Source: Octopus vulgaris
Taxonomy: Eukaryota
Length of the DNA: 64,000 nucleotides
Reading direction: 5' to 3'
NCBI GenBank assembly: GCA_951406725.2
Contig: OX597817.1
Span: forward strand, 44,578,001-44,642,000
Shown here: piece by piece, positions 77 to 52,320 of the stretch
How positions within the stretch are numbered: position 1 is the stretch's first letter
How the letters are laid out: every line of letters starts with the position of its first letter
The notes under the pieces: generated by a model
Told to the model about the DNA's origin: nothing
Databases searched by the model: none
What the model saw: only the letters and a program-made list of their open reading frames with translations
Program-made: the position numbers and the translations under genes

Positions 77-281
77 GTGACCGCGTGTGTACCGTTGGCA
101 AATTTTTTTCCTCTGTCTTCCCTTCTCTGGATCTTTCCTTCTCCTATGTTTACGACGAAGAGCTCCGCTCGAAACGTTAAACCCTCCTTCTTTGCTTCTT
201 TCCTGAGCGTCCAATAATACTATATTTGTTCCACGTCCTCGCGTTGTTGTGTTTTTTGTGCTTTCATGTTTGGATTAACTT
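77..281 (+). mobile_element. Short HHR-bearing repeat island (family H1) between TA tracts
   Basis: About 205 bp homologous to 44374-44584 (+) and, more distantly, 52170-52320 (-); carries HHR-like GTTT-ACGACGA-A-GAGC-TCC-GCTC-GAAA-CGTT-AAAC at 148-182 with a mutated core (CTGACGA in the 44.4 kb copy). Confidence 0.75.
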
Positions 282-296
282 TATATATATATATAT

Positions 297-635
297 GGCG
301 CATGGCTCAGTGGTTAGAGCGTCGGGCTTACGATCGTGAGGTTGTGAGCTCGAATCCCGGACCGGGCTGCGTGTTGTGTTCTTGAGCAAGGCACTTTATT
401 TCACGTTGCTCCAGTTCACTCAGCTGTAGAAATGAGTTGCGACGTCACTGGTGCCAAGCTGTATCGACCTTTGTCTTTCCCTTGGATAACACTGGTGGCG
501 TGGAGAGGGGAGGCTGGTATGCATGGGCGACTGCTGGTCTTCCATAAACAACCTTGCCCGGACTTGTGTCTAGGAGGGTAACTTTCTAGGTGCAATCCCA
601 TGGTCATTCATGACCGAAGGGGGTCTTTACCCTTT
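297..635 (+). mobile_element. tRNA-derived SINE, family A (CORE-like central domain)
   Basis: tRNA-like head TGGCTCAGTGGTTAGAGC...TCGAATCCC, then GTGTTGTGTTCTTGAGCAAGGCACTT; second copy inverted at about 3465-3760. Confidence 0.85.
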
Positions 636-715
636 ATATATATATATATATATATATATATATATATATATATATATATATATATAGAGAGAGAGAGAGA
701 GAGAGAGAGAGAGAG

Positions 716-1265
716 AGGCGTGAGTGTACAATATGTATAGACGAATACGTCTATATATCTACTATTCTAGAGGTGGGCGACAAACAAATGAACAAAGGAA
801 GAAAGTATGGAAGAGGAACGTTGTTTATTATTTACTTTATTAATACTGGATTCAAATTTTGGCACACGCACAGCAGTTTCAGGACTGGGTGGGTTATAAA
901 ATTGATGCCAATATTAATAAACTTGTATAAGCCAACGAGCTGTCAGTCTCGTTAGCACGCAAGGCAAAATGCTCAGTGCCATTTCGTCCGTCTTTTACGT
1001 TCTGAGATCAAATTCCACCAAGGTCGGCTTTGCCATTCATCCTCTCGAGAGTTGATAATTTGCGCTAGGCGGTCGATGTAATAGGCTTGGAACATCCCCC
1101 ACCACTCCCGAAACTGTGTTCGTGTGCTAAAGTTTGAATCCAGTATTATTAATAAAGTAAATAATAAATAACGTTCCTCTTCCATACTTTCTTCCTTTGT
1201 TTCTCGCCCACCTCTAGAATAGTTATATACATGTATTCATGTATACATGATGTACACTCACGTCT
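716..1265. repeat. Fold-back inverted duplication enclosing a degenerate family B SINE
   Basis: 716-895 is the reverse complement of about 1098-1265 (e.g. AAAGGAAGAAAGTATGGAAGAGGAACGTT vs AACGTTCCTCTTCCATACTTTCTTCCTTT); the SINE lies at about 935-1145. Confidence 0.85.
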
Positions 1266-1664
1266 ATATATATACAAACATACGCAGGAATACATTTACA
1301 TATATGTGCAGAAAATGGCACCGCATAAGCATACATAGATACATTCACAGTAACGCATACTATTTCCTGTCTAGCTTTCCCGTATATTTATGATTTCAGA
1401 ATGGCTTACAAGTACACACACAATATATAATTTTCATTTGTCTTTAATATACACGCATTACACTCTGCAGCACAAACATACAGTAATTTCTACAGTGCGT
1501 CTACACAACACTTAAACCTTGTACATTACACATAACCCTACATACAGCTGTCACTTTTATCCGAAATGCTCTTCACTCACGTCGGAAACATAAGAACAAA
1601 ACAGACCAAATGTAATACCAACTTATATTTCCACCCGTCGCCTTCAGACCAGCACGTGTTAGCA

Positions 1665-48357: not shown

Positions 48358-48665
48358 TGGCCTATCCACAGTCCAGTATCTAGGACAGGTAATCTATGTC
48401 CGGGATGTTTAGAAGGATAGCCTACAATAACCTTTATACTGCTATGGATAGGCAACGAGTTGTATAGTTGGCATCATCTGTTCTTCATCTAGTAACGTGT
48501 TCATATGTGTATTTCTTTCACGACAAGATTAATGTCGTCGATATATCGAGAGTACATAGCTAAGTGGATGTTACGAGTCGCTAGGCACTGTTTAAAATGT
48601 CTGTCCCACCCTACCATGAAGAGGCTGGTAACCTCACTGGCGATTCCTATATCAATAGCACCTCT
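48358..48665 (-). pseudogene. PLE reverse transcriptase relic (Neptune-like motifs)
   Basis: Minus translation GAIDIGIASEVTSLFMVGWDRHF...MYSRYIDDINLVV...IHSSIKVIVGYPSKHPGHRLPVLDTGLWI; not in the ORF track; clade name is an inference. Confidence 0.75.
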
Positions 48666-48948
48666 GTATGTGATATATATTTAATATCGTATTGTTATAA
48701 GAATATAATATACTATTATGCTCATAAATTAAAAATTTTTGAATTCCCAATTTTTATACATCTCCAAAAATACACATACACATATATATAAAAGGTTCAA
48801 CGGGTAAATTGTCGCCATTTTATAATTTTAATTTTGCGCATGCTTACTGCTTGTTTTTGATTTTGTCGACTACACAGTATAGTAGGGTCAGTAGGGCACC
48901 TTCTGTGAGGAAAAAACAGCCCTATGACGAAATTCAATCTGCCAGATA

Positions 48949-49048
48949 TTTGGAAACGACATATTACTTGTCATTCGCACCATATGCGACACTCCTATTC
49001 GGAAACGACATACTACTTGACATTCACGCCATATGCGAGACACCTCCC
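48949..49048 (+). repeat. Two-copy tandem repeat of about 49 bp
   Basis: GGAAACGACATA(T/C)TACTTG(T/A)CATTC...CCATATGCGA repeated twice. Confidence 0.7.
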
Positions 49049-50219
49049 CAAATCCTTTAAGCCTTTCCCACAAGGGAAACCTTATGACCTCCACAGCTAT
49101 CTGCAGAGGCCATTCAGGATCCTGTGTGAAGGGCATATCTACTGTCTTTTTATGTTCTTTTACTATTTTCCACCTCCCCACCCTTGTAGTAAAATATAAT
49201 TAATTCATCATAATTTTTAAGCCACTCTTAAGCCTATAACTGATGGAGATTTATGGAACTTCTATTTGTCGCCCGTTCGTTTTTACATTCAGCATACGCC
49301 GTTTCTTTATACGGTATACACACACACACACACACACACACACACACACACACACACACACACACACACACACACACAGACAAATCTACTCAGAAGTTTC
49401 TGCTCTGCTCAAGGCCATACCTGATATTACTCATCCAATTTGTCGCGCAGTGGAACTAAAACAAGCGTCTCAACCACACAGCTATACCTCCATGTCGTGT
49501 AATCTAAAATATTGCACTTATGTAGACAATAAGGCCGTGTCTATGATAAAAAAAAAGCAACAACAATAACGGACATTGTATTATGGGAGACAAGCGAATT
49601 AGCACGTCGGGTAATTGTCATCTGTAACTATATTCTAGCATTAATTTAAGGTGAAATCACCTTTGTACAGTCTTTGTGATATCATTGTCTTCAAGTATTT
49701 TGCTTTCTATTCACCCAGTCAGTATGTTCAAGCAGTTTCTTGTAAAATATAACAAACTACTTCCATTGCCAAAGACGAGGTGATTATTAACCTGATTCCG
49801 CGTAGCTCTTCCTATGAGAAAAACCACTTAATATATTTCAGGTTAAGACTTTATTTATTGAAATAGAATACAGTTTGAAACGTCAGAACGGCAAACATAG
49901 ACATACAACTTTATAACGGAGAATTTTATAATCTCTAATGTCATGGAAAATAAGCAAGTCTGTACGCAAACACTTAAATACATACACATGCACAAAAACA
50001 CAGAATCACACGCGTACACACAGAGATACAGACACACACAGACACAGACACATACACAGACACAAACGAGCGGAGCAATATTTCATAATTCAGTCTTTTA
50101 TTACCTATGTACATATACAGGCACACACCCACACACAGACGCCACCCCCACGTCTGTGAGTTACGCAGACACGGATATACAAGGACAACCCTGCGTATGG
50201 AGACACATATACGTATAGC

Positions 50220-52170
50220 GATATATACACATACAAGCACATATATATATATATATATACTCACAACACACACACATACACACACGCACGCACACACACA
50301 CACATATATATAGACATATACATACATATACATACATACATATGTATGCATATATATATATATATTTACACACATATGTATACATACATACATATATATA
50401 TATATATACATACATACATACACACATATATATATATATATATATATATACATGCATATATATGCATACATACATACATACAGATATATATATATATATA
50501 TATATATATATATATATATATATACATACACACAGACAGATATATATATATATACACACAGATACAGACATAAATATATGCATACATGTGTTTGTGTGTT
50601 TGTTTGTGTGTTTTGCGTATGCAAATGTGAGCGTCTGTGTATGTGTATGAGTGTGTGTATGTGTGTGTGTGTGTGTGTGTGTGTGTGTGTGTGTGTGTGT
50701 TTGTGTGAGTGCTGAAAACAAATCTATGTCGATGATGCAAAGATTTGTGACATTCTGAAATTTGCCCAGGAGAATCGATAAACGGACAGAAATTTGGAAA
50801 GAGATAAAAAAAAAAATTGACATAGAACTCAATCTCTATAGAGATAGGTAGAGACGTTTATAAAGACAGGCTGTAATCGCATCGCCACAACTTATAGACT
50901 ACATAGCAAATATGATAACGACAGCAAATTCCGTTGTTGTATATTTCCTAACCGATAACTTATTTATCGAAGAAGAATTTCCATTACATTAATAAAATAT
51001 TCCTCTCTCACCTTCTACATCATAGTCAACATTAATTTACGTGCAGATGCACACATACATGTTATTCTCAGACTGTGCATCCCTTTGTCCCACTTCATAT
51101 AGCTCTATGTATCTAAATATATACATACATATATATATATATATATATATATATATATATATATATATATATATATATATATACACACACATATATATAT
51201 ATGTGTGTGTATGTGTATATATATGTAGATGTATATAATTATACATGTATATACATATATGTATATATATGCATATATATATATATATATATATATATAT
51301 ATATGTATGTGTATATATATGTGTATATGTGTATATATATATATGAATATATGTGTATATGTGTATATATATGAATATATATTTATATGTACATAAATAT
51401 GTACTTATATAAACATGCATATATGCACATAAAAATGTGCATATATACACATGTATATATGTTTATATATGTGTATTTATGTATATAAAGAAACATCTAT
51501 ATATGCATTTAGGTATATGCATATCTCTCTCTCTCTATATATATATATATAATGTACACATATATGCATATTTATATGTGTTATATATATATATATATAT
51601 ATATATATATATATATATATATATATATATATATATATATATGTATATATATATATGGTGAAAAATGAGCTAAGCGAATTAATTCAGAGTGACCTGAGGT
51701 ATGAGTTTGTACAACAAAGACGAGGAAAGATTACTTAATGCTATACAAGATAAATTCTTGATTTATTGAAATGATCTTCGCTTCGACAGGAAAATTAAGA
51801 TAAAACTAGCGGCAATTGTAATCGATTCCGAATGGATGGTAAGGGGAGATAATCTGAAGGTATCAACAAATTTTCCAGTATAAACACCAAGTGTATACAT
51901 ACATACATACATACATATATATATATATATATATATATATATATATATATATGCATATATATATATATGTAAGTATATATATATATATATATATATATAT
52001 ATGCATATATATATATATATATATATATATATATATATATATATATATGCATATATATGCATATATATATATATATATATATATATATATATATATATAT
52101 ATATATATATATATATATATGCATATATATATGTATATATATATAAGCATATATATATATATATATATAA
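50220..52170. repeat. Large compound (TA)n/(CATA)n/(TG)n microsatellite field with short unique islands
   Basis: Direct reading; source of many IYIY ORFs. Confidence 0.93.
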
Positions 52171-52320
52171 TTAATCCAGCAAAAAGAATCGAGGAAAACA
52201 CAAAAAACAACAACGCGAGACGTGGTACATGCTCTTCGTCGGAAAAAAGAAAGGGATGAAAGTCCAAGAGGAAAGGAAGACGGAGGTAAAAAATCACCAA
52301 CGATCCACATATGGTTAAAT
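52170..52320 (-). mobile_element. Diverged, internally deleted copy related to HHR family H1
   Basis: TTAATCCA...ACAACAACGCGAGACGTGG...GCTCTTCGTCGGAAAA...GGAAGACGGAGG...CCAACGATCCACA matches the reverse complement of 44374-44584; the GAAA half of the HHR is missing. Confidence 0.65.

Follow-up and report, generated by a model that had tools for sequence, protein, structure and literature searches.

The hammerhead-like motifs in this stretch of Octopus vulgaris DNA are best read as lying in the 3' ends (pseudo-LTRs) of Penelope-like elements (PLEs) and in short derivatives of those ends, likely copied from uncut RNA by PLE reverse transcriptase (RT) and GIY-YIG endonuclease, mostly into (TA)n; we place the probability of this reading at about 0.8. 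The stretch analysed, hereafter the window, comprises 64,000 nucleotides of contig OX597817.1. A preliminary description had linked its motifs to PLEs, and the link is borne out by two repeat families: family D is the end of a Hydra-type PLE in the window, and family G is the end of Neptune-type PLEs.

Hammerhead-like motifs in the window and in the genome

A strict descriptor (exact CUGANGA, GAAA and NUH boxes and all three stems) found three motifs in the window and none in 30 local dinucleotide shuffles; the motifs are real and above chance. In a genome sample of sixty 10-kb stretches across the chromosomes (600 kb) it found 16 motifs, against 0, 0 and 0 in three shuffles. Nine repeat families (A-I) carry the sites, in agreement with the original estimate of at least 7-8, and a first look gave 762-3,767 candidates per family. 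Exact patterns matched family A at 6,562 places in the genome, family G at 12,797 and family F at 4,589, with 0 for a reversed-pattern control; for G and F these counts are lower bounds (at least 12,797 and at least 4,589 copies). The Rfam check proposed earlier gave no match at the gathering score, and no hammerhead at E<=10 in positions 4200-4520; the Rfam matches listed were rejected as hammerheads, being microsatellite or hairpin look-alikes.

Eleven of the dozen sites first listed hold a whole hammerhead-like motif, but the one near 52230 keeps the 5' half only. Among the five copies called intact, those at 4274, 31169-31249 and 47663 keep all stems, whereas those at 44446 and 9200 do not. 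At four sites called decayed (148, 15558, 31428 and 45094) part of the decay is shared by the family or subfamily (U4C or A6U), and private changes add to it. The density of one motif per 5 kb is correct for the window but not for the 600-kb sample, which has about 1 per 19 kb (33 whole-motif matches to the nine families, including one spurious palindrome alignment), or about 1 per 15 kb once 8 descriptor matches of other families are added; the window is about three times denser. Two 3' fragments, of family D at 4348-4515 and of family G at 8998-9103, had been overlooked.

A Hydra-type element and family D

The window contains the following parts of a Hydra-type PLE and of family D:

4753..7403, + strand: broken PLE ORF with Hydra-type motifs RWL, DKT and YRDD and, at its C terminus, a GIY-YIG that lacks CCHH
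4348..4440, - strand: family D pseudo-LTR piece, inverted and 5'-truncated (3' half of the motif), head-to-head with 4439..4715
4439..4715, + strand: family D pseudo-LTR preceding the PLE ORF; its 5' truncation leaves it beginning within the palindromic stem III
7404..7833, + strand: 3' UTR of the window PLE, cut off by another repeat before the motif
30990..31351, - strand: family D copy, a 5'-truncated 3' end of a Hydra-type PLE, with its 3' end in (TA)n
31169-31249, - strand: complete family D motif, predicted cut after GUC at 31174
31346..31391, + strand: short inverted piece at the 5' end of the 30990..31351 copy

Family D was shown to be the pseudo-LTR of the window's own PLE. The 3' UTR is 85-91% identical to DNA upstream of the family D motif elsewhere, and the endonuclease end of the ORF (78-94% amino acid identity) lies about 540 nt from the motif in 8 of 30 D loci, in one case on the inverted arm. 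One natural D locus matches window positions 6701-7833, 4348-4709 and 30990-31391. The ORF itself is damaged: its frame changes near 6420, and its endonuclease contains two stops.

Read by eye against the published definition and sequences, the element has the traits of the Hydra clade: a single ORF with RT followed by GIY-YIG, RWK-like and DKT motifs, no CCHH, and CxxC and CxH near the end. The Pfam GIY-YIG match is weak (E 0.025; 5e-4 for a related copy). Family D has (TA)n at 24 of 30 loci, as the proposed (TA)n targeting would have it, with a hammerhead in the pseudo-LTR. An assignment of the ORF to Nematis was rejected, the published diagnostics pointing to Hydra. In the text available of Craig et al. 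2021 (PMC8557442), PLEs of the Hydra clade, among them the Octopus bimaculoides element Hydra-1_Obim, share with the window element the RW and DKT motifs, the lack of CCHH, (TA)n targets, inverted 5'-truncated copies and a hammerhead near the 3' end; for Hydra-1_Obim, Files S1/S2 list a hammerhead and a (TA)n preference. Hammerheads in octopus PLE ends in (TA)n, that of the octopus Hydra element among them, are already published. The window element is by eye a different family from Hydra-1_Obim, differing in protein and hammerhead. A CxCX5C linker ahead of the endonuclease is seen in homologues P0001, P0002 and P0018 and not seen in the window's Asn-rich, broken linker.

Neptune-type ends in families G and A

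Copies of these two related families are found at five places:

15523..15687, + strand: family G copy representing a Neptune-type PLE 3' end; its motif, 15559-15592, has the family-wide A6U
8998..9103, - strand: family G 3' fragment, beginning about 3 nt before the predicted cut
76..286, + strand: family A copy, about 210 bp long and homologous to the end of Neptune-type family G, with its motif at 148-181
44372..44580, + strand: family A copy of a minor subfamily with standard core, motif 44446-44479
52170..52310, - strand: old family A copy whose motif retains its 5' half only (CCGACGA), GAAA box and stem III deleted

A GIY-YIG fragment was found upstream on the same strand in five of the top 30 G loci (one being the query source) and in two of 20 pattern loci, and family G is shown to be the end of Neptune-type PLEs. 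Translations of two loci, L201 and L204, contain a CX2-5CxxC linker and cysteines between GIY and YIG; Pfam gave no match on L201. Neptune-clade PLEs likewise have a cysteine-rich linker, a GIY-YIG with cysteines between GIY and YIG, and microsatellite targets. Family G differs from them in the U at position 6 of its hammerhead across subfamilies, and the related family A in the C at position 4 in its major subfamily.

The 15559-15592 motif has private damage to stems I and III. At 148-181 the core ACGACGA combines the subfamily U4C with a private C3A, and stems I and II are 4 bp each. In the 44446 motif the closing pair of stem I is a C.A mismatch; the motif's standard core was considered as a CpG reversion of U4C and rejected, since it mostly tracks a real minor subfamily.

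Families B, C, E, H and I

The remaining short or non-coding copies outside family F, and an RT fragment, are these:

4098..4351, - strand: family B copy of about 255 bp, with the complete motif at 4274-4316 and its predicted cut following GUA at 4278
9104..9325, + strand: family C copy, motif 9200-9285, intact core and weakened stem II base
47593..47726, + strand: family E unit in (TA)n, an inverted 3' tail joined at stem I to the complete motif 47663-47714
31424..31521, both strands: rearranged family H copy, motif 31429-31466 on + and inverted 3' piece 31470-31521
45056..46138, - strand: family I copy of about 1.1 kb, AT-rich, no ORF seen, motif 45094-45180
47760..48364, - strand: another family I copy; its motif, 47802-47884, shows A9G and a stem II deletion
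46430..46820, + strand: decayed PLE RT fragment, phmmer E 1.5e-11 to the window ORF

The family B copy is young, its top matches being 98-100% identical; 25 of 30 family B loci have an inverted partner, and no ORF was found upstream in the loci examined. Family C shows variable 5' truncation and an optional tail, and its 9200 motif has two A.C mismatches at the stem II base, one of them family-wide. The family E motif has a U.U at the stem II base and a 4-bp stem III; its 23-bp stem I was rejected as natural, because the inversion makes it and the natural stem is 5-6 bp. The family H motif adds a private G16.2C to the family U4C core, and the family I motif at 45094-45180 has the family U4C core and damaged stems. 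The idea that the two family I motifs are the pseudo-LTRs of one element was rejected: they belong to separate copies, 82% alike, and no ORF lies between them. Among the loci examined, families A, B, C, E, F and H yielded no autonomous partner; the sole candidate for family I is the RT fragment adjoining it on the opposite strand.

Family F, a probable tRNA-headed SINE-like element

The window copy of family F is headless:

10170..10300, - strand: family F copy, motif 10214-10257 with G8A and a broken stem II

Fuller copies consist of a tRNA-like head, (AAT)n, the motif, (AATGTAAAT)n and an optional tail of about 30 nt. Among 20 pattern-picked loci, 14 have the head, 15 an inverted upstream copy and 7 the tail. 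Of 14 unpicked F copies, 6 have a head-to-head partner; for four other short window repeats the figure is 19 of 529 copies. The head is copied together with the body into the inverted partner, and all five heads found outside F-picked loci run on into the F body. When the familiar A-box and B-box sequence patterns were applied, the two boxes were 45-46 nt apart in 6 of 50 copies; TTTT was absent in the one copy checked. The head was not recognised as a tRNA by ARAGORN at default settings or by Rfam, with scattered matches only at lowered thresholds. The preliminary description had overlooked the head, as well as the family-wide nature of several 'decayed' cores.

We did not find in the literature a tRNA-headed SINE-like element with PLE-type inverted partners such as family F. 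Among the closest systems are the Sm-alpha and Sj-alpha SINE-like repeats of Schistosoma, which also carry a Pol III-type promoter followed by a type I hammerhead, but are described in the accessible part of the review PMC6765202 as tandem and self-liberating; family F is dispersed, with a minimal motif, PLE-type inverted partners and an optional tail.

Core variants and stem conservation

The majority core is CUGANGA/GAAA/NUH in families B, C, D, E and F and the minor A subfamily. The other families have one fixed departure, U4C in A (major subfamily), H and I, and A6U in G. Positions 7 and 17 are variable, as in working hammerheads. In 24 family G copies retrieved by the 3' flank alone, a single letter is kept at core and stem columns by 79-100% of copies, position 6 is a pyrimidine in 23, position 7 takes all four letters and position 17 is A, C or U, never G; the 3' flanks of pattern-picked copies have a median likeness of only 76%. 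Seven D-like motifs contain compensatory pairs, with 95.6% of cells paired; their covariation is modest (three pairs changed on both sides, a score reached by 9 of 500 shuffles).

Stems I and II and the self-complementary helix III are those of minimal type I PLE hammerheads (helix I 3-5 bp), and stem III strands are predicted to pair with themselves at -5.8 kcal/mol in family B and -4.6 kcal/mol in family D. The short helix I, the palindromic helix III and the extra base after A9 (here in families A, F and G) are shared with the motifs of Cervera and de la Pena 2014 (PMC4209133), as are, in the available text of that source, thousands of mostly solo copies, opposite-strand pairs 100-700 bp apart and many families per genome. 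The core variant given there is U3-A8, in contrast to U4C, A6U and the very long stems II of families C, D and I. Neither family-wide U4C nor A6U was found in the literature, a comparison that covers the available part of PMC4209133 and leaves out the variants of Lunse et al. 2017, which could include either.

Architecture of the copies

Across families, 5' ends vary and 3' ends are fixed, inverted partners and optional tails (families C, E, F and I) are common, and the whole motif usually lies inside the insert. Of 270 loci, 118 have another copy close by in inverted orientation, a count that includes the internal palindrome of family E, and 11 have one in direct orientation. Apparent lengths are biased, since the top-match loci were chosen by their similarity to the window copy. 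These inverted, 5'-truncated and tailed copies match hallmarks described for PLEs in the available text of PMC8557442. The microsatellite flanks reported earlier are present at 24-30 of 30 loci for families A, B, D, E and G and at half for C and I (14 and 16 of 30), but at 1 of 30 for F, over a background of 16% (family H was left out of the scoring). The earlier picture of short non-coding mini-elements apparently fits A, B and F, and E and H as short inverted units; D and G are autonomous PLE ends. Only four of 275 mapped 5' ends (two G queries overlap) lie within 3 nt of the predicted cut, and 5' ends or inversion points were rejected as marks of cutting in vivo. In a DNA run from a relative, which barely contains families B and D at 88%, summed depth over the B and D ends was, as a rough measure, tens to hundreds of times that over the ORF.

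Discussion

Copying by PLE RT and GIY-YIG endonuclease would leave dispersed, 5'-truncated, often inverted copies. Reverse transcription would have one or two start sites, located 3' of the motif, and even the shortest products would thus retain it. Families A, B, E and H likely ride along, being either non-autonomous or truncated in the extreme. The non-autonomous PLEs described in the available text of PMC8557442 (MRC1 and other Chlamys derivatives) and PMC6685494 (short Heliconius Penelope elements) are likewise short and keep the PLE 3' end, with no tRNA-like head described there, unlike family F. The motifs would cut weakly, as dimers or with help from the PLE protein, and cutting would likely not be needed for insertion; for an anole PLE in vitro, the accessible part of PMC11167929 gives internal initiation and a hammerhead that is dispensable and protein-assisted.

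All families, F included, might instead be ordinary 5'-truncated ends of autonomous PLEs, the F head being a separate neighbouring SINE and the variant cores dead mutations carried by successful masters. Families D and G are such ends, and one family A copy extends into upstream DNA rich in pyrimidines. As far as the available text of PMC9901934 goes, activity is low when the CUGA turn carries a single change, and the dispensability of cutting in the anole PLE (PMC11167929, likewise in its accessible part) points the same way. We consider this account unlikely: the same body always follows the F head and accompanies it into the inverted partner, and the 24 G copies conserve their core and stem columns and the pyrimidine at position 6 although 3' flanks are 76% alike.

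Transcription of family F would suit a role in host RNA, with motifs cutting or regulating pre-mRNA from within host transcripts. In two RNA libraries of a relative, family F was present in 7,675 of 12.9 million and 5,984 of 12.0 million reads, and 77% of these reads continue into other sequence. Read depth is nevertheless continuous over the predicted family F cut, most window copies are damaged, the hammerhead is the predicted minimum-energy fold in no window copy taken singly, and solo minimal motifs did not cut in vitro in the work described in the available text of PMC4209133, all of which makes such a role very unlikely.

In a retrozyme, units of 150-450 bp, each with its own hammerhead, are repeated in tandem. 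The copies could be non-LTR retrozymes, in which multimeric transcripts of short units are cleaved by paired hammerheads, circularised and reinserted. The type I motifs do lie in short, non-coding, AT-rich units, one same-direction pair of complete family E units stands 221 bp apart, and in the available text of PMC7229834 and bioRxiv 10.64898/2026.07.22.740005 non-LTR retrozymes have the same features and a proposed PLE dependence, the latter source deriving them from PLE pseudo-LTRs. The defining marks of retrozymes in these two sources are tandem units and circular RNA. No tandem units with complete hammerheads were found in the window, direct second copies occur in only 11 of 270 loci, and the motifs are of the minimal PLE type. 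Family F has no end pile-up and no back-joint among the RNA joints listed for the two libraries, which were ordinary, not circle-enriched, and devoid of families B and D. We judge this origin highly improbable, and the term 'retrozyme-like' in the preliminary description does not suit copies that are dispersed, 5'-truncated and often inverted (118 against 11 of 270) and include the autonomous ends D and G. Chance matching in AT-rich, repeat-rich DNA, to which the missing Rfam match and up to 2 shuffle matches of a relaxed descriptor (one core mismatch) lend something, is already refuted by the strict shuffles of window and sample and by family alignments in which each site has relatives that keep the stems.

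Under the preferred reading of copying by PLE enzymes, family F is likely an RNA polymerase III product that likely borrows those enzymes by way of a PLE-like end it has captured. In our assessment, a tRNA-headed SINE of octopods has probably captured a Penelope end and been mobilised in this way. A wider proposal joins to this that PLE lineages keep U6 and C4 hammerheads under selection, with copies in the tens of thousands, because the fold acts jointly with the PLE protein; the two together are put forward tentatively and are open to serious doubt. The U6/C4 fold would then serve as a protein-rescued ribozyme or as a binding or initiation scaffold, not as a free self-cutter.

What makes PLEs retain their hammerheads is a standing question; in the one PLE tested in vitro, cutting needed protein and insertion did not need cutting. 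This genome has matched natural versions, namely standard cores (B, D, F), U4C (A, H, I), A6U (G) and standard-core sister subfamilies, all at thousands of copies side by side, and the question is therefore directly testable here. The estimated 10^5 such motifs in the genome, invisible to Rfam, matter for its annotation. Alongside the known LINE-dependent SINE partnerships, a tRNA-headed element riding a PLE would add one of another kind.

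Hammerhead motifs in the window and in the genome

Twelve hammerhead sites had been listed in the preliminary description, and when all were read, 11 of the 12 contained a whole hammerhead-like motif, whereas the site at 52230 keeps the 5' half only. Three of the five copies described as intact (4274, 31169 and 47663) pass a strict descriptor requiring exact CUGANGA, GAAA and NUH together with all three stems, but the other two have broken stems, 44446 at the closing pair of stem I and 9200 at the base of stem II. No motif passed the same descriptor in 30 shuffles of the window. 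Rfam recognized no hammerhead among the window motifs. DNA searches of the genome assembly (2.8 Gb, 227 contigs) placed the sites in nine repeat families, named A to I, and first-look genome candidates numbered 762-3,767 per family.

A genome sample of sixty 10-kb stretches at round coordinates held 16 strict motifs, compared with none in three shuffles, and 33 whole-motif matches to the nine families, one of them spurious. At this density, with one motif for every 15-19 kb or so, extrapolation from the 600 kb gives some 150,000-190,000 motifs for the whole genome. The proposed density of one motif per 5 kb holds only for the window, which is about three times denser than the sample. The observation as a whole was partly confirmed. 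The sample also contained at least six other families of hammerhead with the standard core (L273, L276, L292, L300, L301, L311), and in one of them two inverted copies lie 740 bp from each other.

Several other features were annotated in the window:

10730-12364, Tc1/mariner-type element, in which 227-nt inverted arms (92%) flank two minus-strand frames with transposase HTH and DDE_3 matches
38250-39030, minus strand, decayed LINE-end-like frame, judged by eye
32340-33200, decayed integrase-like frame, judged by eye
21120-22200, minus strand, decayed second mariner-like frame, judged by eye
62561-62672 and 26580-26860, long hairpin or inverted-repeat structures with no relation to any hammerhead family

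Pfam gave no useful match for the two tested of the three decayed frames.

Association with Penelope-like elements

Family D is the pseudo-LTR, the hammerhead-bearing end, of the Penelope-like element (PLE) whose reading frame lies at 4753-7403 (+). The endonuclease end of this PLE was found at 78-94% identity in 8 of 30 family D loci, and a single natural locus matches the end of the window frame with its 3' UTR, the truncated pseudo-LTR preceding the frame, the inverted piece at 4348-4440 and the copy at 31 kb. The frame carries motifs published for the Hydra clade, and its named homologues belong to Octopus sinensis, O. bimaculoides and Argonauta, which makes an octopod the likely host. A Hydra element from octopus that bears a hammerhead and prefers (TA)n targets is already in the literature (PMC8557442). 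Family G is preceded by a Neptune-type cysteine linker and GIY-YIG at 5 of its 30 top loci and at 2 of the 20 loci chosen by exact pattern, and family A is homologous to it (68-73%). Five family G motifs lie on one strand within 25 kb at G000:C1:20013552-20037739 of the assembly, probably a local duplication.

Copies of families C and I differ in where their 5' end lies, and a tail may be present or absent; B, E and H are in most cases short inverted units. Microsatellites adjoin the 3' end at 24-30 of 30 loci in families A, B, D, E and G, 14 of 30 in C, 16 of 30 in I and 1 of 30 in F, against a background of 16%. Family B is very young (98-100%; window 4098-4351, L032-L060), and nearly all of its top copies form ~500-bp palindromes and have their 5' end within ~10 nt of one point; it is plentiful in a DNA run of one relative and nearly missing from that of another. 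In family E (L121-L150, L308) the arms begin at two 3' sites ~85 nt apart and meet at stem I or end near the inner 3' site, a layout reminiscent of twin priming with a pair of initiation sites for the PLE.

The proposed interpretation of these families as a retrozyme-like, PLE-based system was supported for hammerheads of PLE ends but not for retrozyme-like units: of 270 loci chosen for likeness to the window copies, 118 had a second nearby copy in inverted orientation and 11 a direct one. Definitions of retrozymes were taken from PMC7229834 (non-LTR) and bioRxiv 10.64898/2026.07.22.740005, the accessible text of which names no mollusc in its species set.

The whole motif usually lies within the insert and only 4 of 275 mapped 5' ends are 3 nt or less from the predicted cut, so RNA left uncut at the hammerhead was the likely template of reverse transcription. 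The anole PLE agrees with this reading: its reverse transcription begins at two internal sites, its hammerhead cleaves only with protein, and cleavage is dispensable for insertion (PMC11167929). In published work, minimal hammerheads did not cut as solo forms and cut weakly as dimers (PMC4209133).

Variant cores

Family A had 6,562 exact matches, with C in place of U at core position 4 in 78 of the first 100 matches listed, counted by eye; its standard core is mostly a marker of a minor subfamily. C4 is also the majority state in families H and I. Family G had 12,797 exact matches, with U at position 6 in 97 of the first 100 listed, likewise counted by eye. In 24 family G copies retrieved through the 3' flank only (8 more flank matches had no readable motif), position 6 was U in 20, C in 3 and A in 1, position 7 took all four letters, and position 17 varied among A, U and C but lacked G; the remaining core and stem columns each held one letter in 79-100% of copies. 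Flanks of pattern-picked copies had a median likeness of 76%. This pattern of column counts, which are inflated by shared descent, would be expected if selection acted on a fold with a pyrimidine at position 6. Against function of the variant cores, single changes in the CUGA turn result in low activity (PMC9901934). Natural U4C is known in a viroid and natural, slow A6C in a phage (PMC3088659).

A family with a tRNA-like head

Fuller copies of family F consist, in order, of a tRNA-like head, (AAT)n, the hammerhead, (AATGTAAAT)n and an optional ~30-nt tail. Among 20 loci at the top of the pattern list, the head was present in 14, an inverted upstream copy in 15 and the tail in 7. A and B boxes are spaced 45-46 nt in 6 of 50 copies, and neither ARAGORN nor Rfam called a tRNA in the head. 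Of 14 unpicked copies, 6 had a head-to-head partner; among 529 copies of four different short repeats the number was 19. The exact 35-letter pattern occurs at 4,589 genome places, and the 600-kb sample suggests ~30,000 copies. From these sequences we infer that family F is probably a Pol III element mobilized by PLE enzymes; its autonomous partner was not found among the loci examined.

Family F RNA is abundant in two runs of a related species, with equal mate directions and 77% of reads continuing into other sequence. These runs showed no end pile-up, and no back-joint among the joints listed, a result compatible with circles in ordinary libraries of unstated strandedness. At L161:1539, 1603, 1618 and 1760, 12-30% of the RNA reads covering family F show A>G changes, which are mostly below 2% in DNA contigs (13% at 1760 in one run); A-to-I editing of the inverted pairs is a possible cause, although the RNA and DNA come from different species. 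At L373, read by eye, an AUG within the core opens a putative frame of 25 codons that runs into the tail repeats and stops there; the reading frame of the anole PLE also starts inside its hammerhead.

Relation to earlier reports

Schistosome SINEs (PMC6765202, PMC8490949), short Penelope elements of Heliconius (PMC6685494) and 235 Rfam hammerheads in giant squid (PMC6962438) have been reported. PLEs and many unclassified SINEs are reported in PMC13282606, with no hammerhead in the accessible portion, and a term search of the accessible text of PMC11014351 returned no matches. A search confined to open-access literature found neither a PLE-borne tRNA SINE nor a family-wide A6U described. Most of the phenomenon is the already known hammerhead of PLE ends. 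The additions to it found here are the family with the tRNA-like head and the variant cores conserved within families, which merit testing.
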